Part shown: positions 3,626-57,271 of the stretch, in pieces
Layout of the letters: every line of letters starts with the position of its first letter
How positions within the stretch are numbered: position 1 is the first letter of the stretch
Origin: Emiliania huxleyi CCMP1516
Taxonomy: Eukaryota
DNA length: 64,000 bases
Reading direction: 5' to 3'
Assembly: GCF_000372725.1 (NCBI RefSeq)
Contig: NW_005201183.1
Span: forward strand, 129,972 to 193,971
Program-made: the position numbers and the translations under genes
The notes under the pieces: generated by a model
What the model saw: only the letters and a program-made list of their open reading frames with translations
Told to the model about the DNA's origin: nothing
Database searches by the model: none

Positions 3626-5595
3626 AGGGCAGGTACACTGGCACTGGCGGCTACCGGCGGGGCAGCGCCGACCTCGACTCGACCTGGTACGACGGGGCAC
3701 CGGCTGGCCTCTCGGCGGAGGATGGCGCGCTTGCGAGCACGAGCATCCCCAAAACACCCATTAGCCAATTCAACACCCGTACGGTGGAAAGTGACACACC
3801 CACTAGGTCTACTGAGCCAGCCTGGGCACTAGGCGCGCTCCACGACGCGGTGACGCAAGCGGCGCTCGGAGGAGAGCACCAGAAGGCGAATGCCTACCTC
3901 CTCCCCGCCTCCCCCCCTCCCCCCCCCCTGCCTCCCCCCCCCCTGCCTCCCCGCCTCCCCGCCTCCCCCCCCCTCCCCGCCTCCCCCCCCTCCCCGCTGC
4001 CCCGCTGCCCCTCCTCCGACCCTCCTCCGACCCTCCTCGGACCCTTCTCGGACCCTCTCGGACCCTCCTCGGACCCTTCTCGGACCCTCTCGGACCCTTC
4101 TCGGACCCTCCTCGGACCCCTCTCGGACCCTTCTCGGACCCTCCTCGGACCCCTCTCGGACCCTCCTCGGACCCTCCTCGGACCCTCCTCGGACCCTTCT
4201 CGGACCCTTCTCGGACCCTTCTCGGACCCTCCTCGGACCCTTCTCGGACCCTCTCGGACCCTCCTCGGACCCTCCTCGGACCCTTCTCGGACCCTCCTCG
4301 GACCCTCCTCGGACCCTCCTCGGACCCTCCTCGGACCCTTCTCGGACCCTCCTCGGACCCTCCTCGGACCCTTCTCGGACCCTCCTCGGACCCTTCTCGG
4401 ACCCTCCTCGGACCCTTCTCGGACCCTTCTCGGACCCTCTCGGACCCTTCTCGGACCCTCCTCCTCACTAGGTGCTCCGCCTCGCTCACAAGTGGGACCA
4501 GGCGGGTCTCCCGCCGGACGCGGCCATCGGCTGGGCCACCGTCAAGGCGGCCGCGTAGCCCTGACCCTAGCCCTGACCCTGACCCTAACCCTACCCCTAA
4601 CCATCGGCTGGGCCACCGTCAAGGCGGCCGCGTAGCCCTGACCCTAGCCCTAGCCCTGACCCTGACCCTAACCCTACCCCTAACCATCGGCTGGGCCACC
4701 GTCAAGGCGGCCGCGTAGCCCTGACCCTAGCCCTAGCCCTGACCCTGACCCTGACCCTAACCCTGCCCCTAACCATCGGCTGGGCCACCGTCAAGGCGGC
4801 CGCGTAGCCCTGACCCTAGCCCTGACCCTGACCCTGACCCTACCCCTAACCATCGGCTGGGCCACCGTCAAGGCGGCCGCGTAGCCCTGACCCTAGCCCT
4901 AGCCCTGACCCTGACCCTAACCCTACCCCTAACCATCGGCTGGGCCACCGTCAAGGCCGCCGCACGAGGCGTGTGGGAAGTCGGCGACCTTTCCTAGACC
5001 CGTCCTGGACCCTTCCCGCAGGCGGCCGCCGCACGAGGCGTGTGGGAAGTCGGCGCCGCGATGCTCAACGACCTCGAGTCTGCGGGCGTGCCTCTCACGC
5101 CGCACCACTTCGAGTGCGTGCTGCGCGCGTGCGACCGAAAGGCGCGGTGGCAGGAGGCGCTCGCCCTTCTCGGGAGAATGCAGGCCGCTTCCCTTCGCCC
5201 GACGAGCGCCGCGCTCGAGTGCGCCCTCCGCGCGTGCTCAAAGGCGACTCTCGGGTCCTCTCGGGGTCACCTCGGGGTACCCTCGGGTCACCTCGGGGCG
5301 TCTGGGATAGGCGGACCAGCAAGAGATGGCGGGCCGCGTGTCGGAGAGGGGACCACGCCCCGGCTCCGACACTGCCTTTACGGGGCCTGGTGGCGCGTGA
5401 ACAGGTGGAGGCCGTGTGGGAGGTGTTGCGCGCTGAGGTCGCCAACCCGTCCGCCCCGCTGCGCCCTCCGATGCGCACGTACAACACGCTGATGCGCGCG
5501 CTCTCTGGCGGCATCGGGCCGAAGCGGGTGGACGGCGCGCGGAGGAGAGGCGCCGAGCAGGCGCCGGCCCCCCGCCCGCTTGCTCCCCCCCCCCC

Positions 5596-5639
<44 letters not shown>

Positions 5640-7814
5640 ACACCACCCCCACCCCCTGCCGAGAGGCTCGCCTCGACACGCAGGCGGTCCGGCTCCGCCT
5701 CCCGCTCGACGAGACGGCGTACAAGCACGCCCTCCGCGCCTGCGACCTGCTCGGCGAGTGGAGGCGCGGGAGTGGGGAGATGTCGGGAGATGTCGGGAGA
5801 TGTGGGGAGATGTGGGGAGACGTGGGGAGATTGCGGCCTGTCGAGACTCCTCCTCGGCTACCTCTCCCCGCACCTCGGCCGCACACCTCGGCTGCGCACC
5901 CTCTACACACCTCTACATCGGCAACACACCTCGGGCTACACACATTGCACCCATCGGGCTGCACCGCCTCCGCTGCACCTCCTCCGCTGCACCGCCTCTG
6001 CTGCACCGCCTCTGCTGCACCGCCTCTGCTGCACCGCCTCCCAGGCGCGCCCTCGATCTGCTCGACGAGTCGCGCGCCGCGGGCGTGCCCGCCGACGTGC
6101 TGAGCTACGGCAACGCTATGTCTGCTTGCGCGCGCAACGGGCGGGTCGGCAACGTGCTGCAGCTGCTCGACAAGATGCGCGCCGACGGGCTGCAGCCGAA
6201 CGCCTTCTGCTACAACTCCGCGCTCATCGCGTGCACGCGCGCCTCGCGGCTGCCGCAGGTCCTGCGGCCCGGCATTGTCAGCCACGAGAGTCACGAGTCG
6301 CCATCACCACTGCGCGCCTCGCGGCCACCACACAGGCCTTTCCTAGACCTTTCCTAGACTGTTCCTAGACCTTTCGCGGCCACCACACAGGCTCTCTCCA
6401 TCTTGCGCGAGATGGAGGTTGAGGGCGGCGTCGAGCCGACCACCCACTCGTACGCCGCGCTGCTCCGCGCCTGCTCCGGCGCGGCGGGGCGGCGGGCGGC
6501 GGCCAGCACCTCTCCGGAGCTTTCTCGGAGCTTTCTCGGAGCCCTCCTGGTAGGCGCGGGCGACTGGCGGACGGCGGTGCAGCTGCTGCGGCGCATGGAG
6601 CGGCTCGAGCTCAAGGCGGAGGCGGTGCACCACGGCCTCGCCATCAGCCAGCCCGTCACTCAGGAGTGTGGCCACTCGTTACCTCAGGCGGAGGCGGTGC
6701 ACTACGGCCTCGCCATCAACGCGTGTTCGCGCGGCGGCGAGGACGGCAAGATCATGTCGCTGCTGCGCGAGATGCAGGGCATGGGGCTCCACCCGGACGT
6801 GGCAACCTTCACCACCGCCCTCTCCGTCTGCGCGGCAAACAACCAGCTGCCGCGCGCGCTCTCGCTCATCGAGCGCATGTACTCGCTCGAGGTGGCGCCC
6901 GACGTCGCGACGTACAACGTGCTGCTGCAGGCGTGCGACCTTTCCTAGACCTTTCCTACACCTCTCCTAGACCTTTCCTAGACCTTTCCTAGACCTTTCC
7001 TAGACTTGCTGCAGGCGTGCGACCGCGCCGCAAAGCACACCGAGATGGTCGGTCTGGTCCAGTCCATGCCAAAGCTCGGCGTGGAGCCAAACGTCGTCAA
7101 CTACAACACCGCCATCCGCGCGCTCGGCCGCGCCGGCGACCTCAAGCGCGTGGCTGAGATGTTCAGCCTCATGCGCTCGCGCGGCCTCGAGCCCGAGGTG
7201 TCCGCCTCCCGCAATCTCGGCTGCCCCTCGGCTGCCCCTCGGCTGCCCCTCGGCTGCCCTTCGCCTGCCCTTCGCCTGCCCTTCGCCTGAGCTTCGCTGT
7301 GTCTCGGCTGAGCCTCGGCTGAGCCTCGCCCAATCCATCCCACAGGTGTCCACCTTCCGCGCCGCAATCAACGGCACTTGCGACGCGGCCGTCGCCGGGC
7401 GACCCCCCCCCCCCCNNNNNNNNNNNNNNNNNNNNNNNNNNNNNNNNNNNNNNNNNNNNNNNNNNNNNNNNNNNNNNNNNNNNNNNNNNNNNNNNNNNNN
7501 NNNNNNNNNNNNNNNGCCGCCTCCGCGAGATGCGCGAGCTCGGCCTGCAGCCCGATGTGGCGATCCAGCACTCCCTCCTCTCCGCCGCCGCCGCCGACCC
7601 GCAGAGGCACGCCGCCGTCGAGTCCGAGCTCGGCGTCGACGCGGAGGCGGTGATGGCCGCTGCGGCGGAGGCGCACGACCGGCGCGGCGCCGGTCGTGGG
7701 CGCGGGTGGCGCGGGCGCGGTGGGCGCGGTGGGCGGGGCGGGCGGGGCGGGCGCGGGCGAGGCAGCCCCGAATGGAGCCGGAGGGAGGGGTACGAGGCCG
7801 TGCGCTCGCAGTGA
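2899..7814 (+). CDS. Multi-exon pentatricopeptide-repeat (PPR) protein with N-terminal SAP domain and probable organelle-targeting leader
   Basis: Splicing 3028-3117 gives SYRELQQACKEAGLPASGKADELRTRLL (SAP). PPR motifs include DVLSYGNAMSACARNG, PNAFCYNSALIAC, PDVATFTTALSVC, PDVATYNVLLQAC and PNVVNYNTAIRALGRAG. Inferred introns include 3886-4471, 4547-5021, 6616-6687, 6931-7014 and 7198-7345. The gene spans an N-gap. Confidence 0.85.
4020..4460 (+). repeat. Intronic ~11-nt tandem repeat (CTCGGACCCTY)n
   Basis: Directly visible; lies inside the inferred GC-AG intron 3886-4471. Confidence 0.95.
4524..4962 (+). repeat. Minisatellite: six copies of a ~31-nt exon-junction sequence separated by telomere-like CCCTRR hexamers
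   Basis: CCATCGGCTGGGCCACCGTCAAGGC(GGCCGC) starts at 4524, 4601, 4684, 4773, 4850 and 4933. Spacers are built mostly of CCCTGA/CCCTAG/CCCTAA. Confidence 0.95.
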
Positions 7815-10357
7815 GGCCGGGGGGGCAGCGGAGGAGAGAGGCGCCGCATCCATCTCCGGCACTGGGCCCTCCGGCTCCGCAGGCCAAAAAACGCATACTT
7901 TTGTCCACCTACCAAGAAGGGTAACTTGCGGTTGTGAACAGAGTCGTTTTGGTTATATCCGCATGTTACATACAATCGCGAGGACGCGCAAACTATATTT
8001 AGTCTTTATTTACATGCAATCCATCATGCAACATCATCCAAGTTCCAACATGCTACATGGCGTGGGCACACATGACACATAGATTGATCTTTGATGCGGG
8101 GTCCTTGCGGAATTCTCACTCTACCCCTCTCCGTGGAACTAAGAAGGGGATATGGGAGCGAGGGTGGGATCAGAGAATCGAGGCCACTGGCCTCTGCTCC
8201 CGCCTGGGATCGCCCATTGCGACCCAGAGCTCTGAGAGACATCGCGAAACCGCGCCAATAAGTTGGATGCTGCCGATAAGTTCGCGCGACGGCGGCGCGG
8301 CGTGCAATAATTGCAAATAGGAAACCGCGCCAGACCATCAGCGCCTCACACGGCGGACACCAGCAATATCAATAATTGACTTGGGCCGCCATGGTAGGAC
8401 GCCGCCCTGAATGATGACGGCAAAGGCAACCCGAATAATAATAGCCATTGCTACGCCGCATCGCGGCTTGGGGCCTGCTGCCCATCTGGACCAACGAATC
8501 CCCCCTCACTGCTGGACGACCACCCTGGAGGAAGTAGAATGTCGCCATTGTAGCCGCGGACGCGTAACCCCATGACTTGGCATACAAAATCATCCCGCGG
8601 TGTACCTGTGTTAAGTGCCAGTGCGCGCCAGTCAGTCCCGTGCCCAGTGTCGTGCGAGGCGCTAGCTGGTAAACAGTAGGGGGAGGGCTCCCAGGGCTTC
8701 GAGGTTTTTTCAGTGGTTTTTATCGTGCGCTGCTCACTCACTATACACTGAGTGGAGAGAGAGAGTACACCACACACACAAACACTACTCCCCAACACGC
8801 GGCTACGTAGCCAGGCCTGCCTGCTACACGATGGCGACGTTCTATCAGGGTTCTGACTGCGTGCTTTTGCTGCCTCCCGCTTGGAGTTGGCAGTAAAGCA
8901 AGTGGGTGGAAGCGGGGGCGACAGGGACGGCGGCGGCGGCGGCAGGGGGCTGGGGGTTCGGCGATGCCGAGGTGTGTGCCCATGTTTGTGCGTGGGGGGC
9001 GTTGCACGCCGCGGATCAGGCCGGGCGGCGGGGAGGAATCGGACGGCGACGGCGGCGGCAGGGACAGGGGCAGTGGCGGTGACCCAGGGATGGTGGCGAC
9101 CGCCGCGAGCGGGACGCGCAGCCGGCGAGGCGAGGTGGCAGGTGGGCGCGACCGTTGCGCGCTGCTCGAGTGCGCACGACAAAGCAGCTCTGATGCAGCC
9201 ATGGTGACCTGCGTGCGCGGGGACGGCAAGGGTCGCGCCGCAGCCCGTGCTCACCGGGGGCTCAGTCTCGATGGGGAGTCGGGGGAGAGAGAGATGACGA
9301 TCGGCTGGCGACCCGTTAGGGTCGACAGTTGAGCTAGGGAGTGTGGTGATGGCCGACCAAATGCGAACGCAGGAGATAAAGTGCTTTGCGGCGACGTTCC
9401 GAGGGTAGGATCAAGTCGGCGCTCGGTTTCATTACAAGGCTCCTTGCCACGTGGAGTTTACGTGCGTCCTCGGGGACAGGCGTAGCCGAGCTGTCGTGAG
9501 GGAGACAGAGAGTCGTCTCCCTCGCTGCGCGTTTCCCCACCCACCCGCCCTGTGATGGTTTCTTGCCCACCCACTGTCTGTGGTGTGGTGTGGGTTGTCT
9601 CTGTTGTGGGGTTGGGTGCGCTCGCCCGAGGTCCTAACCAGGCCTCGGTCCAGCGCCCAGGGGTCTCAGACCTTTGGCTTTCCCCCCTATGCTATTGTTG
9701 GTCGTGACGACCATTTAGATTGGTTATCTACAAGTTCGCCAAAGCCTCAACATACTCAGCAGCCAGGCCCGCGTACCGGTAATGCGAGACGACATTGACA
9801 GTTGGGCCGCCCGCGGCTTGCAGAGCGTTTGAGTGTTGTCGGGCTACGTGCGCATGTCGCGGGCGACGCCCGTCCGCAGCTGACACGTCGTGGTGACGAT
9901 GATGGCGAGGAGCATCACGGTGGAGAGGAGCGGCACGGCCCTGTTTGGGCTCGCTCGAGTTAGCGGTCTAGGCATGGGCATGGGCATGGGCACATTTCAT
10001 TTATCAGGGCTTCAGAGATGAACCTGGAAGAACTTTTTTTCTGGTATTTGTTGAGCACTCTCTGGTCACCTTCGCCGGGCGAGCCTGGCTCTCGCTGCGC
10101 AGCGGCGCGACCCGCGGTGAGGCTGCCGATCGTCGAACTGGGCTTATAGCTCTCAGTCAAGATATTGTGCACATGGTCGGTCTCTACAATACCTTGGCTG
10201 AGCACGACTGATGAATCAGCAGCAGGGAGACAGTAGGCTCGCTGTGTGAGTCGGCCAGTCAGAGGTCAGAACCTGGGCGAGATTTTTGTTTTTTCCATGA
10301 AACGCCGAGCCCACACCCAAACCGCCAGCACACCGCGCCGCAAGCCGAAAAGCAAGC

Positions 10358-12881: not shown

Positions 12882-13449
12882 NNNNNNNNNNNNNNNNNNN
12901 NNNNNNNNNNNNNNNNNNNNNNNNNNNNNNNNNNNNNNNNNNNNNNNNNNNNNNNNNNNNNNNNNNNNNNNNNNNNNNNNNNNNNNNNNNNNNNNNNNNN
13001 NNNNNNNNNNNNNNNNNNNNNNNNNNNNNNNNNNNNNNNNNNNNNNNNNNNNNNNNNNNNNNNNNNNNNNNNNNNNNNNNNNNNNNNNNNNNNNNNNNNN
13101 NNNNNNNNNNNNNNNNNNNNNNNNNNNNNNNNNNNNNNNNNNNNNNNNNNNNNNNNNNNNNNNNNNNNNNNNNNNNNNNNNNNNNNNNNNNNNNNNNNNN
13201 NNNNNNNNNNNNNNNNNNNNNNNNNTGGCGGCACTGGCGCGAGGTGCGTGGGCTCAGGCGGCGACGCGCCGGGGTCGGTCGGTGGCTCGGTCCGTGGTTC
13301 TGGGGGACGGTGGGGGTGGAGGGGGTTCTTGCCAGGGGCGTCTCGTACCTTTGCGAGGCGGCGCAGGTCTCGCGCGCTCGCGCCTCTCGCGCCTTTCGGC
13401 CGCGGGGGTTCGTAGAGTGCGCCAGGCAGCGTAGAGGGCGGGGGAGCGT

Positions 13450-14475: not shown

Positions 14476-14486
14476 ACTTGGGCCAT

Positions 14487-14570
14487 CATCCGGCCCGCTG
14501 GGTGCGCTTCTCTTAGCTCCCCGGCCCTGGATGTGAGGCTAATGACCCTGCACTCCAAGTGCTCCAAGCT
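14487..14570 (+). repeat. Dispersed repeat D ending in a (CCAAGTGCT)n tail; second copy at 63693-63772
   Basis: CTGGGTGCGCTTCTC..AGCTCCCCGG..TGAGG..TGCACTCCAAGTGCTCCAAG is shared by both loci. Confidence 0.8.
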
Positions 14571-14811
14571 CTTGGTGCTCCTGGCGGCCGTTTGAAGGGC
14601 GGGCGCGCGCCGATGGGGGGTGGGTGTGTCTTGCTTGCTCCACACCGAGCGCCCACGGTCCGGACCGGCGTGGTCACCGAGGGTCGGCTTGCACAAGGTC
14701 TGTGCCGCGGGCGCTCGGCGCCAAGTGCAGTGTCACGCTGTTCATCAACAAGCGGTTGCGCCGCTTGGACCCGAGCATAACCCTCCCTCCACCTACCCGT
14801 GTCCCGAAATG

Positions 14812-18742: not shown

Positions 18743-18784
<42 letters not shown>

Positions 18785-19204: not shown

Positions 19205-21924
19205 CTACGGCGGCTGCGGCGAGGCAAGCGGCGGCGGCGGTGGTGGCTGTGGCGCCCGGTCGGGCGGAGCGGGCTGCGGCTCTGGCGCCTCCACCAGCTG
19301 CTGCAGCGGCCGCTGATCCTGCTGCTGCTGCTGCTCCTGCTCGGGCGGCCGCGGGCCCGGCGGCGGCGGCTGCGACGGCTCCGCCCCCAGCGGCGGCGGC
19401 GGCTGCGGCGGGCAGGCGGCCGCCTGGCGGGACGCCTCCCCGCCGACGCGCCCGCCAGGGCCGGGGTTGGACGGAGGGTCGGGCGGCGGCGGGCCGGGCG
19501 GCGGCTGCTGCTGGGCTTGGGCGTGGTCGTGGATGCTCGCTCGGAGGTCCTCGTCCCAGCCTAGCAGCCGAGGCGAGCTCGAGGGTTACATCTCATTCTC
19601 TCCCATTCAAATTCTGATGTTCCATTACTATATTCTAGCCTAGCAGCCGGGCGAGCTCGAGGACGCCCGCGTCGCAGTCGCCCTCGAAGAAGGCGTCGCG
19701 GTGGTTCGCCTCGTCGCCGTGCAGCATCGCGCGCGGGTCGCGCAGCCCGAGCATCCGCACCATCGGGTCCGCCTCGCCGACGAGCTCTCCTGTGGTACGG
19801 GCGTGGACGAGTCACGGAACGTGTCCTGCACCGCCCCCTCCCCCTCGCCGAGCAGCTCGCCTGTGGACAGGTCTCGGACATGTCTCGGACATGTCGTGGA
19901 CAACCCTCCCCCTCGCCGAGCATCTCGCGGTTCAGCAGCAGCCGCGGCGTCGCGAGGCCGCACCTGTGGGGAGAGGGTAAGGTAAGGTAAGGTAAGGCAA
20001 ACTTCTCCACACACACGAGGTGGTGGGGCAAGGGGGGGCGACCTCGCGTCTCCACGTCTAACGACAGGAGCCCCACGGCATTAAATGTGCAACGGTGCGC
20101 GTGGGTGGGGAGAGGGGTGTCCGGAGGAGGGCTCAGAGACGCGGCCCCAGAGACGCGGCGTGCGCGAGGGCGCGGCACCGGCCGAGCACGACGCGAAGGG
20201 GTATAAGGGGGTACAAAGGGGTATAGGGGTATAAGGGGTATAAGGGGCGCAAGGGGCACACGGGGGCACACGGGGGTGCAAGGGGGTACAAGGCACCGGC
20301 CGAGCAGAGACGCGAAGGGCTGCACCTTGAGCGACGTGCCCATCACGATGAGGGCCTGCTCGCACACCGGCAGGACGTGACGCGGGCCCCGCCGCCTCTC
20401 CGCCCGCCGGAGCCGACGCCGCGAGGGCGCGCCTCCGCCGCAGGCAGGTGTAAGGGGGTATGAAGGGGGTATAAAGGGGGTATAAGGGGCGATGGCGCGC
20501 CTCCGCCGCAGGCAGGTCGGCCTCGGCCGCCTCAAAGAAGCGAGCCGGCAGCTGCTCGCCAAAGAAGACGATGTCCGGCTTGCAGAGCCCGCCGTACCGC
20601 TCCGCCAGCTCCGCCCAGCCTCCCGGCCCCTCGCGGCCGACCGCGACCGCCCGACGCACCTCGAGGGTTAGGAGGGGGGGGGGGGAGGGGTCAGGGGTCG
20701 GGGTCGGGGCCAAGCCCACCCCTTTGCGCATACTCGACGCTTGGGTCAATCCGCTCCCCCACTCGAGCTGGCTCTCAGTGAGGGCCGGGTCCACCCCCGG
20801 CGCCGGGTCTCGAGAGACCTCCTCGGCTCCGTGCCACGCGCTCTTACTGAGAGCCGCTCGCACCTCCCCGCCGCGCGGGGACCTTAATTATGAACTAGTA
20901 ATGAGTACTGATGAGTTCAGGCGCACCTCGCCGAGAGGGACCGGCTCGCCCGTCTCGATGCAGTGGCAGCCGTCGAAGTTGCCGTGCGCGGCGATGGTCA
21001 AGTCGGCCGGCAGCCCGGCGCGCGCCTCGAGCGAGTCGATGTTTTGCGTGAAGCAGCGGCGCAGCAGCCCCTTCGCGTGCAGCAGCGCGACAAAGTGGTG
21101 GGCGGGCGTCGGCTGGAAGTTGTCGGGCCACATCTCCCTCGCAAGGAGGTAGAAGGCGTCGGGCCGCTCGCGAAAGTAGGAGAGCTCAAAGATGGCCTGC
21201 GGCGACGGCAGGTCGTACTTTTGCAGGTTGTCGTACAGGCCGGTCCCGGGCGACCTGAGTGTTGAATACGCCAGCTTCAGGGCACGAAGGCGGTATTGTG
21301 CAGCGTCTTCGAGAGCACCGCGTGAGTACAACGGAGAAGAATACAGTGCATACAGCGGAATACGACCGAGTACGGCGGAATACGTGTCCTCTCGGGCGCT
21401 AGTTGGGATACATGAACACGTATTCCGCTTCTAGGCCGGGCAGACCGAAAGTCCGGGATGCCGGCCGACACGGAGATGCCGGCGCCGCAGAGGACGACGA
21501 CCGACCGCGGCGGGCAGGAGGCGAGTCGCTGCGCGAAGCCGGCGATGTCGAAGGACGGCAGCTGCGCCGGCCGCGCCGGCGCGTCGCGCATCTCGTACCC
21601 TCTCGCCAGCAGCGCCTCACGCAGCTGCGCCACCATCGCCGCCTGCCGCTCCTCCGACTCCTCACCGCTCCCCTCGCCGCTCCCATCGTCGCCGCTGCCC
21701 TCGCCGTCACCGTCGCCCTCCTCGCCGCCCTCCTCGCCGCCTTCGTCGAAGCCGCCCAAGTCAGCTGTGCCCTCGCCGGGCATCGGCGACGCGGGGAGGT
21801 CAAAGATGCCGTCGCCGTCCGCGTCCGGCAATATCGCCGCAGCGGCAAAGACGTCCTCCTCGCCGTCCTCGCCGATCGCCGAGGCCACGGACATCGCATC
21901 CGTGTCGGAGTCGGAATGCTGCAT
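19205..21924 (-). CDS. SIRT2: NAD-dependent deacetylase, class I sirtuin (SIRT2/Hst2-like), multi-exon
   Basis: Motifs GAGISVSAGIPDFRS/PGTGLYDNLQKYDLP, TQNIDSLE, AHG, KPDIVFFGE, GTSLKVQPFASL, LLLNRE and GDCDAGVLELARLLGW. The last exon follows intron 19561-19639 and reads in frame to TAG at 19205-19207. Confidence 0.92.
19975..20092 (-). mobile_element. SINE/LINE-3'-end-like repeat with (CCTTA)n tail inside a sirtuin intron; second copy at 36745-36859
   Basis: GTAAGG..AAACTTCTCCACACACACGAGGTGGTGGGGCAAGG..TCTCCACGTCTAACGACAGGAGCCCCACGGCATT is shared by both loci. Confidence 0.7.
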
Positions 21925-22298: not shown

Positions 22299-23789
22299 TC
22301 ACGGAGGAGGGGAGGGCGGGCTCGGCGGGAGGCTCGGGAAGGTGTACTCGGCAAACACGAGGGCGGTGGTCAGCAGGGACAGCGCGACGCACACCCCCGT
22401 CGCCATCTGCGCGCGCCACGCGCCCGCCCCGCGAAAGTGCGACATGAGGCGCGAGGTGACGAGGGGCGGCGCCGTGCCGTCGCGGGAGAGCAAGTTCTGC
22501 AGCGAGGGCTCGGCGCCGCCGGCGCCGCGCCGCTTGAGCCGCATCTCCATCAGCCACTCGTCCGCCATGTCGCCGTCGTACTCGCGCACGACGCCGCCCG
22601 AGCGGACGAGCAGCAGCACGGCGCCTGGAGGGCGGAGGAGGGTGCGGCGGAGGAGTTCGGCAGGATGAGGAGGGGGGACGGGGCCTGCCGGCCGAGCGGG
22701 GGGCGGGCGGCGGCGCGCCGTGGACGGGCGGGTTGCAGCCGGGGCAGTTTTGGAAGTCGGGGTTGGTGAGGTGCGGGTGGTTGGGCTCCGAGTGCAGGTA
22801 CTCGGCGGGGTCCCCAAAAGCGAAGCCGCCTAGAGGCGCGGCGTGCGCGTGTCGGGCGGGCAGCGAGGCGTCGGCGGCGCGGCGCGGAGGAGGCGCGGCC
22901 CTCGCGGAATCGCTCGCACGCCGCCTTGAAGGCGGCGGCGAGGGGGAGGCGGAGCGGCGCGCCCTTGGTCGCCTTGAGGTCGTCGCCGATCACGTCGTAG
23001 AATCCCTGCGCAAACTCGCGCGCGGCGGTGTCCTCGGTGATCGAGCTCCTGCGCTGACGGGCGGCGGACGCGTCGCTGGCGCGCGCAGCGGCCTCGGAGG
23101 GGGGGAGGGGTCGGGGGGGAGGGTCGGAGGGTCGGGGGGGAGGGGCGGCGCCAGCAGATGACGGCGATGTCCTGCGGAAGGCCCTCGACGATCGCCCGGC
23201 CGAGCTTCTCCGACTCGCAAGAGTTGAGGAAGACGCACCTACGCGCGGGGGGGAGGGGGCGGTGAGGAGGCGAGGAGGCGCCGCCGACGGCCGGCGGTGC
23301 TTGCAAGCGGCGGGCGCACTCGAGTCCGGGCGGCTCCTCGTCCGGCCGGTGGGCGGCGGCGGCGCTCTTACGCGCCGCGGTCGCCTGGCGCAGCATCGCG
23401 ACGAACTGCGCATTCTTCTGGTCGATGTTGGACGAGTCGATGGCGCCGTTGGCCTTCTCGAACGCGAGCGCTCCTGGGGAGGACCGGGGGGGGGGGGGGG
23501 GGTTCGGAAATATCCCGGAAGGATGCCGGGGAAGACGCCAAAGGCCAAGGAAGGCCCAGGGGGGGGGGGGGGGGACAGAGGGGGGTGCCCCCCCAAGGGG
23601 GGGCCCCCAAAAAAAAAAAAAAGCCGGGGAGGGGCTCCTCCATCTCGCGCCGGCAATCGTCGAGCGTCGCGGCGGGCACCAGGGCGAGGTAGACCTTTGG
23701 GGTGGGGTGGGGTGGGGTGTGTGTGTGGGGGGGGGGGGTTGCTCAGCGGTCTGCACGGCAAGTGCGTCCGGTGAGAGGAGAGTGTGGCC

Positions 23790-23877
<88 letters not shown>

Positions 23878-25862
23878 GCTGGTGCACGGCAAGTGCGTCC
23901 GGTGAGAGGAGAGTGTGGCCGAGGGGTCGTGAGCCGAGTGCACAGGGGGGGTGCCTTTGGCACGGAGCGGAGGAGGAATCGCATCTCTTGCCCGAAGCGG
24001 AGCGGCTCGAGGCGCAGCGCCTTGCGCAGCTTTGGCGGCACGGTCGGGTTGGAGAACAGGGCGAGCAGGGCGGTGTGCTTGCCCGCGATCAGGTCGCGCT
24101 TGACGTCGCCTTCGCCCTGCAGCGCGACGGTCGTGAGGAAGATTTGGCGCTCGAACCGGTTGATCCGCCGAGCGCCGTAGAGCAGCATCAAGGCGACCTG
24201 ATCACGACCCTTCCGCGGTGAGACAGCGCCGGCCCGAGCCGCCGCCGCCGCGGGTGGAGCCGTCGGAGCGCCAGCGGAGCGAAGAGGAGTGCGTCCACCA
24301 CCCCAGCGCCGGCGGTGAGGCGGAGCCTCTCGTGCGCCTGGGCGAGGGAGCGCGACGCGGCTGAGCCTCGCAGGAGGCGTGCCGCCGCACCCTCCCCTCG
24401 CGGCAACTCGCTGCGGCGACTCCCCTCCCCTCCTCTGCTCTCCCTCCTCTCCTCCTCCTCTCCCTCCCTCCCTCCCTCCCTCCCTCCCTCCCTCCCTCCC
24501 TCCCTCCCCCCCTCTGCGGCGTCCCGCTGCGGCGTCTCTCGCGGCTGCGCCACGCGCCTCCTCGAAATCCGCATCACCCCATCTCTCCCCATATCTCCCC
24601 ATATCTCGCGCCTCCTCGAAGTCCGCATCACCCCAGCCCTCCAGCTCGGCTTTCTTTCGCACATCGCGCAGCACGTCCGGCAGGGTGCGGAAGAGGTGGC
24701 ACTCGGTGAGGAGGAAGAGGAGGATGACGAGGATGCAGTCAACCAGCGCCCAGACGTAGTCGAGGCACGACAGGATGCCTACTCCGACGGTGCAACCAAA
24801 GTCCGGCAAGGCGATGCCGAGCAGCAGCAGCCGCCGCGGCACGAGAGGGGTGTGTGCAGAGGAAGGCCGCCCAAGAGCCGAAGAGCAGGAAGCGCAGCGC
24901 GTGCCACGACTGGGCGGCGAGCTGCGATGCCAGCGGCGGACAGTCTAGGTACGACTTCTGCAACCTCTCGCAGAGAAGAAGCACGCCCGCGTCTGCCACC
25001 TCCCCACTCACCGCGTCAGTCAGCGCCGCCTTGAACACGGCGGCCTACGGGAAAGCTCCGGGAAGGTTCGCGGAAGGTTCGCGGAAGAGGCTCGCGGCGC
25101 CTGCTCGCGGCCTCGGAGGCGCGGGAGAGCGATCTGAGGTACATCTGGAAGGTGACGAGGGCGAACGCAGACACGACCAGCAGCCAGTTTGCCGCTCCTA
25201 CGTCGGTGCAGAGCAGGGCCCACGCGGCGACGGCGCAGACGGAGCTCCAGATGTGCACGTCCGTGTCTTTGACCTGCACCCCGAGGGCGGGGTCGGGGTC
25301 GGGGGTGGGGGTACGTCCCCGCGCTCCGCCGCGGCGCGCGTGCGAGCTGGCGGGCGCGCGCCATCATCATCGACACGCCCGCCTCGAGCACGCCTCCCGC
25401 GCCGCGATGGTCGCTCTCAAAGTTGAGGAGCGACTGCTGGTAGATGGCGAGCGCGGCGAAGAGGAAGCCAAAGAGGAGGAGGACGCGCTTGATGTACTTG
25501 AGCTGGTGGTGCCGCAGATACTCGCAGAACGCCTCCTCCACCGACGCGTCGCCGAACCGATTCGTCAGCCAGCTCTGGCCCACGAGCCGGCGCATCCGCT
25601 TGTTTGCCTGTCGCGAGAGCGACTCGCCCATCCACGAGCTGAACTGCTCGTGCTGCACCGCGTTGGACGGCTGGTGCTTCACCATGGTGGTCGGCAGCGA
25701 CCGCTCCGCGCCCGAATCCAGCAGCTGCCGCCCGCTGCTCACAGGGTAGCTGGTCTTCGAGCTGCGCTCGTCCACCAGATTCGACGGAGACTGATCAAAC
25801 ATGGCGATCGTGTTGTCGTCCACCTCTTCGCCGTAGACCATCGACTTGATGGAGGTCATCAT
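22299..25862 (-). CDS. Multi-exon polytopic membrane protein with a CHAT (caspase-like) domain
   Basis: Several hydrophobic helices in the 5' exons, then LLALFSNP..LEPLRFGQEMRFL, ATLDDCRREM, GALAFEKANG, CVFLNSCESEKLG and ITEDTAAREFAQGFY, in CHAT-family order. Region 23480-23740 is low quality. Confidence 0.6.
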
Positions 25863-32754: not shown

Positions 32755-33840
32755 ATGAGCGCACCGGCAGTCGTCGCAGCCGCCGCTGGCTACGTCGCCG
32801 TGTGCTTGGCTGCGTGGCTCCTCGGACGGTCTGGCGCGGGCCCGCCTCCAAAGCGCACGGTGGAGATCGCGCGCGGTGTGCACATGCCGCTGCTCGCCAA
32901 TGGCGTCGACACGGACCACCACGTATGGCTCGAGGCTGGTGGACGGCACCTCGACACGGCCTTTTTGTACGGAGACTGGAAGCAGCGCGCGGTCGGTGCC
33001 GCGATCGCGTCCAGCGGCCTGCCGCGTGGCGACGTCTTCCTCACGACCAAGGTGATGTGCTGCCCGACGCTGCGCTGCGGTGGCGTGTGCGAGGGCGGTA
33101 CCACCGCTCCCGTCGCCGTGAACGCCGCGACGTACCGCAACGTGACTGCCCAGCTCGAGCACAGCCTCTCCGTGCTCGGCCTGCCTTCGGTCGACCTGCT
33201 GCTCCTCCACTTTCCAAACGCCTCCTAGACACCTCCTAGACACCTCCTAGTCACTTCCTAGGTCGACCTGCTGCTCCTCCACTTCCCGTGCGCGCGCTGG
33301 GCTGACACGGCCGCGGCGTGGCGCGCGCTCGAGAGGGCGCACGCCGCCGGCCACGCGCGCGCGATCGGTGTGTCAAACTTCAACGCCAGCCTGCTCCGCC
33401 GTCTCGTCAAGATCGCCGCCATCCAGCCGGCCGTCAACCAAGTCGGCTTCTCGATCGCGGGCCACCCGGCGGAGCACGGCGGCGAGAATGCGACCCGCTA
33501 CGGCTGCCTCGAGGGCTCGCGTCTGTACGGCGCGGACGACGCCACGCTCCGCCTCGCCACCGCGCGTGGCATCACGACACAGGCCTACTCCCCGCTCGGG
33601 GCGATTAGCAATGTCGACGTGCTCGGCCGGCGGGAGGTGCAGAGGGTGGCGGCTGCGCACAGCCGCGAGGGCGGCGCGCGCAACTGGACGGCGGCGCAGG
33701 TCGCCTTTGCGTGGTTGCTGCAGCAGGGTATGGGCGCCGTGACTGCGACGACCGACGCGAGACACGCGGCAGAGGCGCTCGATGCGGCGGAGCTCCGCCT
33801 CACGCGCAGGGAAATGAGGTCCCTCAGCAGGCTCAGGTAA
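32755..33840 (+). CDS. Aldo/keto reductase, one inferred intron (33190-33261)
   Basis: GGRHLDTAFLYG, DVFLTTK, LGLPSVDLLLLHFP, RAIGVSNF, PAVNQV, TQAYSPLG and AAQVAFAWLLQQG. Confidence 0.9.
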
Positions 33841-43129: not shown

Positions 43130-44846
43130 ATGATCTCGACGTCGACGTGGCCTCGAGCGCACGCGTGGCCCAAAGCCGGCCTCATCGCCCTCGTTAGTTT
43201 CGTCGCTCTTGCCGTGACCGCTCGTGCTGTGGCTCGCGCGTCGGTCGTAAGCGATGCTGCACCGCTCACCAGCGCGTGGTCTGAGTTGCGCTTTGCCGAT
43301 GCTAGCGCGTGGACGAAAAGGCCGGCCTTCGACTCGAACTGCGAGGCTCAGTGGACGTTGACCACACTCGCGGGCGTCTCGACCGGCTTCATCAATAAGG
43401 CCATCGGCTCGATGCAGTACCCGCTGCACGTGCATGATGTGCTGCCCGCCGGGAAACAGCTCGAGGTGCGGTCCGCACTCGGCCAGCGAATCGCGCTGAC
43501 CAACGTCTCCGTGCTCGATCTCAACCCGGCGACGATCCAGCTCGGCGTCTGCCGCGACGACCTCGAGTGGCTGCAGAGGCAGAGCTTTGCGCGCCAGGCG
43601 TTTGAGCGCTCGACCCGTCCGAACGACGGGCTGCAGATCCTGGTGTCGGAGATCGTCACACACGTCCAGGTCAAGTTCCAGGTCGTCCAGACCATGGGCG
43701 CGCTCTAGCAGCAGCGCCGCACACGTGGCAGCACCACTCACTGTTCCGTCCCTCCGCTCCGCCTCCCTCTGAACTGTATCGTTGTCGTCTCTCTAGCCCC
43801 TCCCTCTCCAGACCTACGCAATCCCCCGCGCTGCAGGCTCCTTCATCCCCGACGTCTTCCTCGGCTGGGGCACCGCCAACGTGACCGTGCGCGGCGTGCT
43901 CGACATGCACGAATCCGCCCCCAGACCTACTCCGCCGTCGGACACGTCCATGACGCGTCCTCACGGCCGCGTCGCAGGCACGTCGACTTGCGGCACATCG
44001 AGGCGGCCGCGCTCGGGCAGGTGCGAGCCTGCACCTCGCGAGGGGGAGGAGGTGTGAACAGCGTCTCTTCACACCTCCAGCTGTGAACAGTGCCGCGGAA
44101 AGTTCGACGTCGAGTCGATCTCGATCGCTGCCGACGGCATCAGCGCCGGCTTGCTCAACGCGCCGATCCGCCAGGTCGCGGATCTGCTCGTCGGGGAGAT
44201 GGGCCACATCATCTGCTACGGCGACTCGGTAGCCCGCTGCCACGCCCCCCGCCCAACTCGCCACGCCCCCGCCCAACCTGCCGAGGAGAGGTGCCGTTCA
44301 CGGCCTCGCGCGCGGTGCGATCAGGTTGCGGCGGTCGCCGTGTACAACAGCGAGACGTCGCACCTCACGAAGCTGCGCGGCGTGGTCCAGCTGCTCAACG
44401 CGGAGATCAGCGCGCGCGCCACGTTGGTCAACGTCCTCCTCTGGCCTTTTGGCGCCAGCTCCTCGGCAAGGCCCTCTGGCACGTGACGTGCACCACCTTG
44501 ACCTGTCCGCGTGTGTGCTGTACCATTAGGCGCCTCTCCGTTCCCGCGCGAAGTGGATCCGAACTTGGCGGCCGTCGAGCGCGCGCGCGCCGACATCGCA
44601 AAGCTGAAGGAGGTCGGGATAGAGGCGGAGCTGGGCGAGGGGCGGTTCGACCACATACGCGACGAGAACGGCGATGGAGTCTACCACGTTTGGGCGGGCG
44701 CGGATGGCGGCGGAGGGAAGTACGTGAACGGGATCTACCAGCCGAACCACATGGAGAACGACGGGATCGTCTCGATGCTCGCCACCGAGACGCTGGAGGA
44801 GCGCGCCCGCGGGAACTCGGCCAATGTGGACGCAGTGGCAGAGTAA
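43130..44846 (+). CDS. Hypothetical multi-exon protein
   Basis: Successive coding-like ORFs separated by short pyrimidine-rich, AG-ending segments; N-terminal hydrophobic helix. Confidence 0.4.
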
Positions 44847-52979: not shown

Positions 52980-55900
52980 ATGCCGCCCACGCTCCTCGCC
53001 AGCTTTGTCGCTCGCGCCTCCTCCTCCGGCGACGCGGCTGCGCTCGCGGAGCTCGGCCGCGAGGGACTGAGCAGCACGAGCTACGCCTCGCTCTGCGCGA
53101 CCGTGCGCGGAGCTGCCGCCGCGCTGCAGGCGGCCGGAGTCGTGAGCGGCGAGGCCGTCGTCGACTTTTGCGACGAGGGTCGGGCCATGGTGGTCGCCAT
53201 GCTCGCCATCACCATGGCGGGCGCGGCGATGGTCCCTCTCGACCCGGCGGCGCCGCCGGCGAGGCTGTCTGCCCTCGTCGCCGACTGCGGCGCTGCGCTG
53301 GCGCTTTGCACGCGTGCGCGCCTCGCCAGTCTCGCCAGCGCGCTCGATGGCGGCCGCTGCCAGCCGCTCGCACTCGAGGACGTCCTCGTCCGCGACGCTT
53401 CTCTCCCGGCAGCGCCCGCGCCTCCACCGCCCGGCGCCCTCTGCCACCACATCTACACGAGCGGCTCGACCGGGCTGCCAAAGGCGGTCTCGGTGACGCA
53501 CGGCGCGCTGGCAAGCTACGGCCGCGAGAAGGCCCGCACGCAGCGGGTCGGAGGCGCGTCGCGAGTGCTCGTCGCCTCTGCGCACACCTGGGACCCGGCC
53601 GTCGGGGACGTGCCTTCGACCCTCGCGGTCGGCGGGCATCGTGAAGTACTGTGAATTAAGGAGGAGTGGACGACCGAATTAGGTACTCTCGACCCTCGCG
53701 GTCGGCGGGTGCGTGTGCGTCGCGCCGCGCGCGCACCTCGTCAACGACTTGGGCCACGCGATCGCCGCGACGCGCCACCCACTCGCGAGCCAGAACCTTC
53801 TAGGAACCTTCTAGGAAGCTTCTAGGAAGCCTCTAGGCGCGCCACCCACCTCCTCGCGACCCCTTCCCTGTTGTCGCTGCTCGACACGCCGCCCGCAAGC
53901 CTGCCGACGCTCGCCACGCTCGCCGTCGGGGGGGAGCTGTGCCCGCTCCCTCTCCTCGCCCCCTTCGCCGCCGTGGGGTAGTATCATTTGACTATACCGG
54001 CATACGTTCGACTAGAGCAGCATCCTTTGACTGAACTAGCACCCTTTGACCATAGGGTGGAGGTGATCAACGTGTACGGCGTCACGGAGGCCGCCGTCTA
54101 CCAGACGTACGCCACGCTCTCCCACCTCCCGCCCGACCCGGAAGGGACACCGTACTACTTGCGCGGCCGCGCCGCCGCCGCCGGCGCCGGCGTCGCCTTT
54201 GCGCCCGCCGGCATCCCCTTTCGTGGCGTCGAGCTCGCGCTCGCCCCGCCCTCCGCCCGTGCAGCGGAGGGGGGTGAGGACGGGCTCGGCTCCGACGACC
54301 GGCGCGAGCTCCTCATCGGCGGCGACCAGCTAGGAACCTTCTAGGAACCTTCTAGGAACCCTCTAGGCGCGAGCTCCTCATCGGCGGCGACCAGCTCGCC
54401 GTCGGCTACCTCAACCGGCCACGCCTCACCGCGGAAAAGTTCGTCTGGCTGCCGGACGCGGCCGTCGAGCGGCTCCCGCGCTCGTACGGCCGGGCGGCGC
54501 CGCCGCACTGCGGAGGGTGCGGAGGGCGAGGCGCGCGCGGCGGTCGAGGAGGGGGAGAGGAAGGCGGCGAGGCGGGCGGCGAGGCGGGCGGGGAGGCGGG
54601 CGGCGAGGCGGGCGGCGAGGCGGGCGGCGAGGCGGGCGGGGAGGCGGGCGGGGAGGCGGGCGGGGAGGGGCGTGGCGCGGGGCGTGGCGCGGCGTCGGGC
54701 GACGGAGGCCAGCGCTGGTTCCGCACGGGCGACGCCGCCGAGTGGGGGGCGGACGGGCTGCGGATTTGCGGCAGGCTGGACGAGCAGGTCAAGCTGCGCG
54801 GGATTCGGATCGAGCTCGGCGAGGTCGAGCACGTCGCGCGCTGCTCTGACCTCGTCACCGCCGCCGCCGCCGCCGTCCGGGGCGACCAGCTCCTGCCACA
54901 CACGTGGTGCCGCCGACCCGTCCTAGACGGTTCCTGGAGCCTTCCTGGAGCCTTCCTGTAGGCGGCCAGCTCTTGCTGTACGTTGTGCCGTCCGTGCCGC
55001 GGGCTGCGTTTGAGGAGGGCGGAGGGGGCGTCGAGGTGCTGCTGACGCTGCGCCGGCGGCTCCCGCCGCAGCTCGTCCCGGCGCAGGTGGTCGCCGTCGC
55101 CGCTCTGCCCCTCTCTCCCGGAGGCAAGCTGATGCGGTCGAGGCTGCCGCCGCCGCCGCCGCGCGCCGCGCGTCTCTCGCCCGCCGCGAGAGAGGGGTTC
55201 CGCAGCGAGACGGAGAGGCACGTCGCCGCGGCGTGGGCCGCCGCGCTCGGCGCCGCCGTCGGCCCGGGGGACAACTTTTGGCAGCTCGGCGGCACGTCGC
55301 TGATCGCCGCGAAGATGCTGCGGCTGCTGCAGGGCTCGCTGGGCGAGGAGCACGGCAGAGACTCGTTTGAGCGCGGCAACCAGCGCTTCGCGACGCGGCT
55401 GTGCGGCCTGTACCGCAAGCCGAGGCTGCGCGACTATTGTGTGTGGCTCGACTGGGCGGCGCTTCCTCCGCCGAGCCGTTCGCCGCGCGCCGCCGCCGCC
55501 TTCACCGCCTTCACGTCCGGCGCGAGGACGGCGGTCGCGGCAGAGGGGGAGGCTGCTGGCTCCGAGGCGCGGCCGGAGGAGGCGGAGGGGGCGGCGGAGG
55601 GGGCGGCGGCAAGGGCGGCGGCGGGGGAGGCGGAGGCGGCGAGGGCCGCCGCGGCGGCAGACGCCGACGAGCTCCTCGCGGCGGGCGAGGAGGAGCTGCC
55701 AGAGGAGGAGGACCTGAAGCGGCTCGCGACCGAGGCGCTCGGCGCGGCCGCCGCGACCGGCAGCGCCCGGCTGGTTGCGGCGCTGCTCGCCGCTCGCGCT
55801 TCGGCCGACGGCGGCGCCTCTCGCGCCGCGCGGGGCCCGACGCCGCTCATGCGCGCCGTCGGGCGAGAGATAGCCGAGAGACAGCGGAGAGACAGCCGAG

Positions 55901-57271
55901 AGATAGCCGAGAGACAGAGCCGAGAGATAGCCGAGAGACAGAGCCGAGAGATAGCCGAGAGACAGAGCCGAGAGATAGCCGAGATATGACGCCGCTCGTG
56001 CGCGCCGTCGGGCGCGAGAGACGCGTGGCCGCACCGGACCTGCTCGGAAGCTTCTCGGAAGCTTCTCGGAACCTTCCTGCAGGCACGTGGACGTGCTCGC
56101 GACGCTCGCTGCAGCGGGCGTGACTGTCCGCCTCTCCAGCCACTCGCACGCGAGCGCGGCACACCTCGCCGCCGCTGGCGGCCACGCTGCCTCGCTGCGG
56201 CTGCTGCTGCGGCTCGGCGCGCCGCTGCAGGCGCGCGGCACGTCCGAGCGGACGACGCTGTACCGCCACCCAAAGAGTAGCCGAGACGGGCTGGAGTTAG
56301 GCGCGGGACACGTCCAAGTGGACGGTGCTCTATCACGCGGCGTGGGGCGGCCACGCCGAGTGCGTCGCGCTGCTGCTCGACGCGCGAGCGCGCTGCGACG
56401 CCTCTGACCGGTGGGGGAGGTCGCCACTCTGCTGAGATATAGCCGAGATATAGCTGAGATAGCCGAGATATAGCCGAGATATAGCCAAGATGGGTCGCCG
56501 ATCTGCCGAGAGATAGCCGAGATATAGCCGAGATATAGCCGAGATATAGCCGAGATATAGCCGAGATATAGCCGAGATAGGTCGCCGCTCTGCTGGGCGT
56601 GCTGCCGCGCGCACGAGCGAGTGGTGGCGCTGCTCCTCGAGGCGGGCGCCAGCCCCGACGGCAACCGCCGGCCGCAGCGGGCGCACAGCGAGCGGTTCGG
56701 CCACGTGTACAGCCCGCCGCTCCACCTGGCGCTGCTCGGTGGCGATGCGGACGAGGGGCGAGGGGGCGAGGGGCCTGGGGGCGGGGAGGAGCGGCGGGAG
56801 ACAGACGAGGCTGTGGCAGCAGAGGCGGCGAGGCAGGCGCCGGGGGAGAGCTCGGCGGGTGGCGCCGCGGCGGACGTGGCGGCAGGTGGGCGGAGGGTGC
56901 GGCCGGACGCTCTAGCCGTCGTCAAGTTGCTCCTGGCCGCGCGCGCAGACGCGAATCGGCGCGACCAGCTCGGGCGCACGCCGTTGCGCGTCGCGAGCGC
57001 GGCTGGCCTCGCAGAGGCAGTGGTGCTGCTCGAGGCCGCGGGGGCGCGGCGAGACGACGAGCCGCGCGCAGGCTCTGCGCGCCATCGGGAGGAGGCTGCT
57101 GTGGCGCCCGAGGCTGCCCCTGCGAGCGGCGCGCCGGCACAGGCTGGCGCCGAGAAGCCGTGGCTCCGCGCGCGCTGCTGGGCGGCGGCGAGTTCGGGTT
57201 GGGCTTGGCCACCGGGCGTGGCGCCGCGCGAGGGAGCGACCTCGACCCGAGCGCCTGACAGGTGTGTGTGA
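52980..57271 (+). CDS. Stand-alone NRPS-like protein: adenylation + thiolation (PCP) + ankyrin repeats, multi-exon
   Basis: A-domain cores: [76 protein letters not shown] and [21 protein letters not shown]. Ankyrins: [28 protein letters not shown] and [11 protein letters not shown]. Confidence 0.88.

Follow-up and report, generated by a model that had tools for sequence, protein, structure and literature searches.

Echo introns, in which an intron end copies the neighbouring exon, are confirmed in the marine haptophyte alga Emiliania huxleyi as real, spliced and far above chance. In the window (the whole 64,000-nucleotide stretch of DNA analysed here) and in metagenome loci, many introns are built from 10-40 bases copied from the adjoining exon and a filler that is common to unrelated genes. 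It is likely that E. huxleyi is still producing introns by a duplicate-and-fill DNA repair step, and such a step would account for the predominance of GC at its intron starts. A sequence-only reading of the window had proposed that introns are born when an exon segment is duplicated around newly made repeat filler. All 11 repeats it named are present (Table 1), and its account of their origin is partly supported.

Splicing and echo statistics

Contigs from sequencing runs X1, X2, X6, X7 and X11 were used to look for exon joints. These runs were taken as RNA by guess, except for X11, which retains introns. The four PPR introns named by the sequence-only reading (4547-5021, 6616-6687, 6931-7014, and 7198-7345) were skipped in 3/3 presumed-RNA runs per comparison (four studies over both), as it had anticipated for transcripts. 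The X11 run had neither these PPR joints (0/1) nor any sirtuin joint, and its contigs retain every intron covered; the metagenome contig L004 likewise retains the PPR introns wherever they are covered. Exact overlaps at these four joints are 8-18 nt, shorter than the 31-letter assembly word, and thus repeat collapse in assembly does not account for the joints. GT/GC...AG ends were found at an equivalent cut in 10 of the 11 joints examined, the exception (20351/20497) being placed by length. Splicing is likewise seen in the sirtuin gene. The comparison that includes it, over 19 kb, gives 15 of 255 joints, so that absence of a joint there is uninformative. AKR and NRPS-like introns were placed by homology or frame restoration; removing the AKR intron opens a frame of 337 codons. 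A search with AKR returned one transcriptome relative, whose gapless alignment across the intron is uninformative on its presence.

The anchored echo score was 9.6 in the 15 RNA-joined introns and 4.1 in cross-paired intron/exon controls, and a score of at least 8 was reached by 7/15 introns versus 6/210 controls (permutation p about 1e-5). Without the five introns that the sequence-only reading had named, the scores were 6.7 and 3.8, with 3/10 versus 2/90 reaching at least 8 (p 5e-5). Among introns placed by homology only (n=9), 7/9 scored at least 8 versus 3/72 controls. The remaining 8/15 RNA-joined introns score below 8, and since the genes were picked by the earlier reading, no genome-wide share follows from these counts. 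Two introns were left out: a PPR intron near 5561-5683 (18 unplaced letters) and an NRPS intron near 55860-56082 (no donor found). In all the cases shown, the two copies are separated by filler, and no intron was built of duplicated exon alone.

Nine of the 15 RNA-joined introns have GC donors. The exon supply of GC:GT is about 81:19, and therefore newborn donors would be mostly GC. The view that the donor is drawn from exonic GC or GT is supported. A GC-donor majority was also found in the E. huxleyi survey of Feldmesser et al. 2014 (PMC4028052), where GC donors make up 56-65% and intron retention is frequent; unlike here, the available text of that survey ascribes GC donors to genome GC content and gives no duplication origin. 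The exon supply (81% GC) exceeds this published share, so that extra steps are needed. AG is missing from the exon end in 6/14 introns with an echo score of at least 8, indicating that the filler provides the acceptor, as it often does.

Table 1. Introns and duplications analysed in the window (runs with a splice joint are given where noted).
Gene	Positions	Strand	Ends	Feature
PPR	4547..5021	+	GC-AG	intron; about 5 copies of 83-nt unit; joint in X1, X2, X6, not X11
PPR	5244..5310	+	GC-AG	intron; 11-nt-repeat filler, no significant echo; placed from micro-exon letters
PPR	5329..5404	+	GC-AG	intron; possibly decayed echo
PPR	5764..6044	+	GC-AG	intron; 5-nt echo passing into 10-nt repeat; joint in 3 runs
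PPR	6259..6390	+	GT-AG	intron; acceptor duplicated (nested) around 11-nt-repeat filler; joint in 3 runs
PPR	6479..6553	+	GC-AG	intron; decayed echo (score 11.5), acceptor from filler
PPR	6602..6621	+		polymorphic 20-nt segment; single in window and X11, duplicated in L004
PPR	6616..6687	+	GC-AG	echo intron; joint in X1, X2, X7; kept in X11 and L004
PPR	6931..7014	+	GC-AG	echo intron; 18-nt duplication across CAG|GC around 11-nt repeat
PPR	7198..7345	+	GT-AG	echo intron; 15-nt imperfect echo, 11-nt-repeat filler
Sirtuin	19561..19639	-	GC-AG (predicted)	intron; last 24 nt copy upstream exon end; AT-rich filler; kept in X11
Sirtuin	19790..19928	-	GC-AG	intron; weak donor ACC|GC; X2 joint and micro-exon letters
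Sirtuin	19964..20296	-	GT-AG	intron; exon end and donor copied (nested) around 9-10-nt repeat
Sirtuin	20356..20500	-	GC-AG	intron; 145-nt joint in X2, X6; ends set by length and GC-AG
Sirtuin	20660..20926	-	GT-AG	intron; 9-nt overlap; joint in 3 runs
Sirtuin	21255..21445	-	GT-AG	intron; interior related to unrelated locus L021
'CHAT'	23752..23921	-		39-nt duplication with (CA)43 between the copies; lies entirely within an intron
'CHAT'	24553..24635	-		29-nt duplication of exon end and donor around 10-nt repeat; nested event
AKR	33190..33261	+	GT-AG (predicted)	echo intron; 23 exact nt, 11-nt repeat providing AG
	44054..44090	+		37-nt non-tandem filler module, common to L007 (twice) and partly L020
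NRPS-like	53610..53682	+	GT-AG	predicted intron; 27-nt echo; missing from the earlier list
NRPS-like	53772..53836	+	GC-AG	predicted intron; decayed echo, 11-nt repeat
NRPS-like	54302..54366	+	GC-AG	predicted intron; 30-nt perfect echo, 11-nt repeat providing AG
NRPS-like	54882..54961	+	GC-AG	predicted intron; 15-nt echo
NRPS-like	56231..56300	+	GC-AG	predicted intron; 32-nt diverged echo
NRPS-like	56420..56580	+	GT-AG	predicted intron; 15-nt echo, 11-nt repeat

Simple and nested echoes

The simplest cases (33190-33261, 54302-54366, 6931-7014, and locus L023 in RPB2) have an echo and filler only and no remnant of an older intron. In the PPR intron at 6616, the first 31 nt match the next exon with 1 mismatch and the filler is a 40-nt non-tandem sequence; cutting at 6622-6693 is equivalent and gives an identical transcript. 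Exact matching in the 5'-end echoes is limited to 6-8 bases in 7198-7345 and 4547-5021; with mismatches allowed, the echo at 7198 reaches 15. The 83-nt unit of 4547..5021 is made of exon end, donor, and CCCTAA-like filler, and after the units comes a nested duplication in which 32 nt from the start of the next exon are copied, with 11-nt-repeat filler. In the sirtuin intron 19790..19928, copies of the start of the next exon are stacked and have decayed.

The named pairs hold as intron-end echoes in the PPR gene and, at predicted intron ends, in the AKR and NRPS-like genes and in sirtuin 19561-19639, while three other pairs are nested duplications, secondary in existing introns. Both copies of the 'CHAT' pair 23752/23883 are within an intron, so it was rejected as an exon echo. 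The 'CHAT' pair 24553/24607 and the sirtuin pair 20426/20494 were rejected as intron-end copies of the next exon; each straddles an existing donor, in the latter case that of 20356..20500. Equivalent-cut analysis found no exact canonical shift at the 20356..20500 joint. Two exon pieces of the 'CHAT' gene were tested and had no Pfam match for that label.

On the metagenome contig L004, the PPR gene is present as an allele with 99% identity. It carries an extra 20-nt duplication with a 34-nt filler of 10-mer repeats between the copies, and this 54-nt unit is missing from the window. The 6931..7014 intron is also longer by 33 nt in L004. Polymorphism of such introns had been put forward as a check on the idea, and a copy-plus-filler unit does differ between alleles; however, it sits at an existing donor and enlarges an existing intron, and the direction (gain or loss) is unpolarised. 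Among the alleles compared, none lacks a whole echo intron and only the nested unit is polymorphic. Thus, no empty allele was observed, and the gain of whole introns is what we infer.

Filler families and loci chosen by filler

The sequence-only reading had regarded intron interiors as not homologous, which does not hold. One 11-nt repeat serves as filler in 25 metagenome loci and in several introns of the window, the 37-nt module at 44054..44090 is 35/37 identical to L007, and a sirtuin intron is related to L021. Repeats of 10-11 bp were reportedly described in E. huxleyi introns by Read and colleagues in 2013. There are at least eight unit types among the fillers. Only units and one 37-nt module are shared, and no full-length intron family was seen in the 64 kb and 25 loci. 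Cross-locus comparison showed no shared termini of fillers. After repeat masking of the 25 loci and the window, 12 cross-locus matches were found and none adjoins an array, so no shared element body was seen beside the arrays, although heavily truncated copies would escape. Four non-tandem fillers had no match within the window or the loci, and two filler motifs were absent from viral-contig scans.

The metagenome loci were chosen only for one filler repeat, and an echo filter score of at least 15, which favours long duplications, was applied. Direct repeats flank 19/23 filler arrays versus 1/506 controls. These duplications are 18-40 nt long (median 26 nt). Together with the echo scores, they support the view that these introns originate from a duplication and a filler. 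Junction microhomology was 2.25 nt on the left and 2.0 nt on the right (12 junctions each) versus 0.63 simulated, while 7/19 loci on each side have no direct abutment. Echo length varies between alleles L024 and L025 (20 versus 31 nt), and later array spreading may inflate the microhomology. The proposed AG|GY proto-splice site is enriched in the duplicated segments but it is not required, as the introns without AG at the exon end show. With the filler read as its pyrimidine-rich strand, AG|GY falls inside 12/19 duplications versus 4.4 expected; on the antisense strand there are 3 versus 4.0 expected. A first count of 'spliceable' loci (13/19 sense, 11 antisense) was discarded, because the filler itself contains ACCT. 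Arrays fall in intron-rich genes in 20/23 cases, and the L007 array is nested.

Origin of the echo introns

Probably, introns are still being born here through templated insertion that leaves a long duplication, which would be a variation on the break-repair (Daphnia) and tandem-duplication models. At a DNA lesion, repair synthesis would jump to a distant repeat template and back, so that 10-40 bases become duplicated. A short match to a 10-11-nt minisatellite already present, or to some other sequence carried by introns, may prime the growing strand, which would copy 30-130 nt and re-anneal upstream of its departure point. Such copying is judged more likely than synthesis of the filler on the spot, which had been suggested before. 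An exonic insert would persist only if the spliceosome excises exactly one copy plus filler, using as donor a GC or GT from the exon that lies at the first copy or within it, and as acceptor a duplicated or filler AG. Later events across existing splice sites would be silent and accumulate. Echoes would decay with time, and recombination between copies could delete an intron precisely. The template may be DNA or RNA. More tentatively, a large share of this haptophyte's introns (RPB2 included) may have been made recently, and may still be made and erased, by long-duplication templated insertion using intron repeats as filler; introns would then seed introns without a transposon, and the process would account for the prevalence of GC donors, the intronic minisatellites of 10-11 nt, and intron retention.

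The same intron gain could have another engine. A non-LTR reverse transcriptase, or a telomerase-like activity, might use a nick to prime short RNAs, such as repeats derived from introns or the tails of elements, with a second nick 10-40 nt away giving the duplication. Target-primed insertion gives variable long duplications, microhomology at both ends, and shared inserts, all of which fit. The filler of 4547-5021 is a degenerate CCCTAA repeat, and mammals insert telomeric repeats at breaks with microhomology (Nergadze et al. 2007, PMC2246262). However, no shared element body adjoins any array, the unit types are many, and target duplication is found in a minority of the mammalian insertions (6/130 in rodents). 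We therefore regard retroposition as unlikely. Somewhat less likely still, the duplicate-and-fill step acts only on old introns and overwrites or extends their ends, possibly via spliced cDNA, so that echoes are not birth marks. The sole polymorphic unit at an existing donor, the nested named pairs and L007, and the concentration of arrays in intron-rich genes fit such remodelling. Yet for the start of the next exon to be copied immediately after the end of the previous one, the two exons must once have been joined, and the simple introns have no old remnant. NRPS-like orthologues also appear intron-free: metagenome contigs, the longest 79,872 nt, carry full-length protein calls of 1044-1139 aa, and Chrysochromulina parva belongs to one of the clusters; this suggests intron-free genes provided that these calls are unspliced, as we take them to be. 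No Chrysochromulina-type orthologue was found in the viral-contig scan, and a search of genome contigs gave no relative. Since Chrysochromulina tobin is intron-poor (PMC4580454), intron loss in relatives is possible.

Introners, here non-autonomous DNA transposons with repeat bodies, are improbable as the source. They are present in Chrysochromulina sp. (Gozashti et al. 2022, PMC9860276), and the shared 37-nt module and the sirtuin interior related to L021 point their way, but their target duplications are given as 3-9 bp, whereas those here are 18-40 nt and variable, and the fillers differ in length and unit and have no common ends. The window contains gaps and low-quality stretches, but an assembly artefact or chance is hardly conceivable: the independent X11 contigs and L004 hold the same introns, and 19/23 independent arrays have the same anatomy.

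Templated insertion with a long duplication resembles several known systems. As in the repair of staggered double-strand breaks in Daphnia pulex (Li et al. 2014, PMC4202315), the insertion is accompanied by a direct repeat, the exon end recurring at the other end of the intron, and there are nested staggered-then-staggered events and allele-level variation. The Daphnia repeats are 4-12 bp (33 cases) and those here 10-40 nt, with a metagenome median of 26 under a filter favouring long ones; here, moreover, the insert comes from shared repeat families and often gives the acceptor, and a gene has several such introns. As when an exon segment bearing AGGT is duplicated in tandem (reviewed by Yenerall and Zhou 2012, PMC3443670), the duplicated AG|GY gives donor and acceptor and the coding sequence stays intact, but the duplicate alone is too short here and foreign filler adds length, AG in the duplicate is optional, and GC is used over GT. 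Like introners (PMC9860276), related sequences lie in introns of unrelated genes and splice sites are co-opted from the duplicated target; unlike them, there are no fixed ends or length, the duplication is far longer, and the body is mostly minisatellite. The main text of that paper mentions neither Emiliania nor 'haptophyt'. Mammalian interstitial telomeric insertions (PMC2246262) share the inserted tandem repeat, 1-5-nt in-register microhomology, and sometimes a target duplication, but they have one repeat type and rare duplication, and the available text reports no intron creation. A literature search, with subscription papers and supplements outside its scope, found no description of echo anatomy in haptophytes.

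It has long been asked how spliceosomal introns can originate without transposons, and the majority of gained introns have no clear source (PMC3443670). These footprints are long, frequent, and allele-variable, and thus birth, nesting, decay, and precise loss could be dated from population data, this alga being widely sequenced. They also suggest a cause, open to testing, for two features of E. huxleyi: its GC-donor majority (PMC4028052) and its excess of introns over other haptophytes, a question raised by PMC8379373. Echoes leave junctions ambiguous by 5-20 nt, by which gene prediction can be misled.

Splicing of echo introns

Echo introns, in which an intron end copies the neighbouring exon around a filler, are real, spliced and statistically strong. 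Every repeat cited by the sequence-only reading was found in the window. Contigs of presumed-RNA runs were aligned on 4500-23750 (X1, X2, X6) and 5026-7415 (X1, X2, X7), together with run X11 in both. The four PPR introns named in that reading are removed from transcripts, since they were skipped by all presumed-RNA runs covering them (Table), and X11 contigs had zero joints at these four sites. X11 was continuous through 6346-6963 and 19417-19865, and thus it behaves as DNA. A GT/GC-AG cut resolved 10 of 11 joints examined; at the sole mismatch of the 6616 joint, the transcript base is that of the downstream copy.

For the AKR and NRPS-like genes, frame restoration agrees with the predicted introns: their removal widens the AKR frame to 337 codons, and taking five from the NRPS-like gene leaves 840 stop-free codons (7 stops unspliced). 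Homologues align across the predicted points in both genes; the haptophyte Prymnesium parvum supplies the top relative of the NRPS-like gene, at 54% identity. Pfam matches confirmed four labels (PPR, sirtuin, AKR and adenylation), and none was found for 'CHAT' in the two exon pieces tested. The window has a GC content of about 65%. GC donors occur in 9/15 RNA-joined introns, resembling the 56-65% given for Emiliania huxleyi in the accessible text of PMC4028052. Together with the Prymnesium relative, this donor share points to a haptophyte source, likely Emiliania/Gephyrocapsa.

Coordinates of features in the window and in metagenome loci
Sequence	Position	Strand	Feature	Observation
Window	4547-5021		PPR intron	skipped by 3/3 runs (X1, X2, X6)
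Window	6616-6687; 6931-7014; 7198-7345		PPR introns	each skipped by 3/3 runs (X1, X2, X7)
Window	20426/20494; 24553/24607; 23752/23883	minus	nested duplications	copy existing splice site or intron interior
Window	21255-21445	minus	sirtuin intron	related to locus L021
Window	44054-44090		37-nt non-tandem module	also twice in L007, behind 33-nt echo
L007	1027-1133; 670-756			33-nt echo + 37-nt non-tandem module; 70-nt unit in two copies
L023	212-255	minus	array in RNA polymerase II subunit RPB2	31-nt perfect duplication with CAG|GC around 11-nt repeat
Window	5311-5328; 19929-19963		micro-exons (18 and 35 nt)	each flanked by introns; contig letters agree
Window	9209-9776	minus	echo-less GT-AG intron	unannotated transcript, joined in 3 runs
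Window (both positions); also L024/L025	4556-4934; 20681-20709		degenerate CCCTAA telomere-type repeats within introns	unit includes branch-point-like CTAAC/CTGAC
Window	17093-17170		degenerate 11-12-nt array outside recognised genes	acceptor-like AG at end; possible non-coding intron
Window	2054/2096; 8246/8321; 31677/31705; 32352/32485; 52087/52121; 63483/63560		short spaced duplications outside recognised coding sequence	two spacers look like intron fillers
Window	10367-12880		gametolysin-like M11 peptidase	no introns
Window	25837-27348		open frame with RNase H domain	probably retroelement remnant
Window	37386-38178; 60360-61289		156-nt coding repeats	RCC1-like by appearance

Echoes, acceptors and fillers

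Echoes exceed chance. The 15 RNA-joined introns scored 9.6 against 4.1 in controls that matched each intron to the exons of another, and 7/15 reached at least 8 compared with 6/210 control pairs. The excess held for the 10 introns beyond those listed in the sequence-only reading (6.7 vs 3.8) and for nine homology-placed introns (7/9 vs 3/72). Two introns with unresolved ends were excluded from these counts. A clear echo is absent from about half of the introns in these selected genes. Across the window, arrays of period 10-11 fall mostly (20/23) in five genes spanning about 16.5 kb, and the apparent introns of the genes at 29650-31470 and 43125-44850 contain none; the choice of genes is circular, but targeting among genes may be uneven.

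As an independent sample, metagenome contigs were scanned with the 11-nt filler alone, which gave 25 loci with 27 arrays, 23 of them distinct. Direct repeats (score at least 15) bracket 19/23 distinct arrays compared with 1/506 cross pairs; they are 18-40 nt long (median 26), two being inflated by running into the array. Copies overlap the array by 2.25 and 2.0 nt (12/19 abutting on each side), against 0.63 in simulation. One array is a clean echo intron, as judged from sequence, in the highly conserved gene RPB2. Near the 70-nt units of L007, whose gene we take from its motif to resemble 6-phosphogluconolactonase, a founding echo has a second event stacked over the donor.

The events form two classes. 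Founding-type introns start with the start of the next exon or end with the end of the previous one, and may hold echo and filler alone. Nested events copy a splice site or intron interior that was already present. One sirtuin pair and both 'CHAT' pairs cited in the sequence-only reading are nested. The proposed origin of introns from a duplicated (A)G|GY site was borne out in part: AG|GY lies in 12/19 duplicated segments against 4.4 expected from local sequence, an excess confined to the strand with pyrimidine-rich filler (antisense 3 vs 4.0), but 6 of the 14 window introns scoring at least 8 have no AG at the exon end, so their acceptor derives from the filler. Contrary to the claim that interiors are not homologous, repeat families, the 37-nt module and the L021-related sirtuin intron are common to separate loci. 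The filler was therefore likely copied from elsewhere rather than synthesised on the spot, as had been supposed. No common element body was found beside the arrays.

Allelic variation and intron age

There is direct evidence that the underlying mutation differs between alleles. Metagenome locus L004, which differs from the window's PPR gene at 10 of 1,100 aligned bases, is another allele of it, with the same introns but longer arrays. At the donor of 6616-6687 it carries an additional 54 nt, a perfect second copy of 6602-6621 across a 10-nt repeat, absent from the window and X11. This difference directly displays the unit of change, one duplication plus filler. The unit is a nested event that lengthens a pre-existing intron; its perfect copies suggest a recent gain, and the two states alone fit gain or loss. 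The alleles L024 and L025 have an array and acceptor in common, with echoes of 20 and 31 nt, a difference that would fit one repeat unit having taken the place of 11 nt of echo; they also differ by a 14-nt duplication at another site.

One cluster of NRPS-like orthologues, which contains Chrysochromulina parva, includes proteins of 1139 aa encoded by JGI/IMG and ENA contigs that reach 79,872 nt; three more ENA clusters hold full-length proteins on 6.9-22.6-kb contigs (46-66% identity to protein P0005). If the JGI/IMG and ENA gene calls are unspliced, as we take them to be, these orthologues are intron-free, compared with about eight introns in the window copy. In C. tobin the mean is one intron per gene (accessible text of PMC4580454), so introns may instead have been lost in relatives. 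The evidence for new introns is indirect; the stronger argument, a logical one, is that the start of exon 2 is copied right behind the end of exon 1 and followed by filler only, the residue of an insertion with target duplication.

Origin of the duplications

The duplications probably arose by templated insertion during repair synthesis, which would return upstream of its departure point. Exons supply GC over GT at 81:19, so exon-derived donors would start GC-rich; GC donors in 9/14 high-scoring and 5/10 low-scoring window introns are consistent with this, in numbers too small for a test. Retroposition or telomerase-like addition is a doubtful source, and it is unlikely that old introns were only remodelled. 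Introner transposons likewise have dispersed sequence in common, but their published 3-9-bp duplications (PMC9860276, as accessible) are not matched here; such an origin is highly improbable. An artefact is practically inconceivable, since unbroken X11 contigs show that 6616-6687 and 19561-19639 are no assembly errors.

Templated insertion during repair has partial parallels, as far as the accessible texts go. The Daphnia staggered-break model works alike, nested events included, but its repeats are short (PMC4202315), and tandem duplication of AG|GT works alike but is of exon-only composition (PMC3443670). Microhomology-primed repeat insertion at mammalian interstitial telomeres is reminiscent (PMC2246262). 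No such mechanism is described in the accessible parts of PMC3488318, PMC8379373 and PMC8775090, the second of which names haptophyte intron gain and loss an open question, and our search, which covered neither supplements nor the E. huxleyi genome paper, found no literature on this anatomy in haptophytes. Relative to known intron-gain routes, the duplication length, shared filler and density are unusual.
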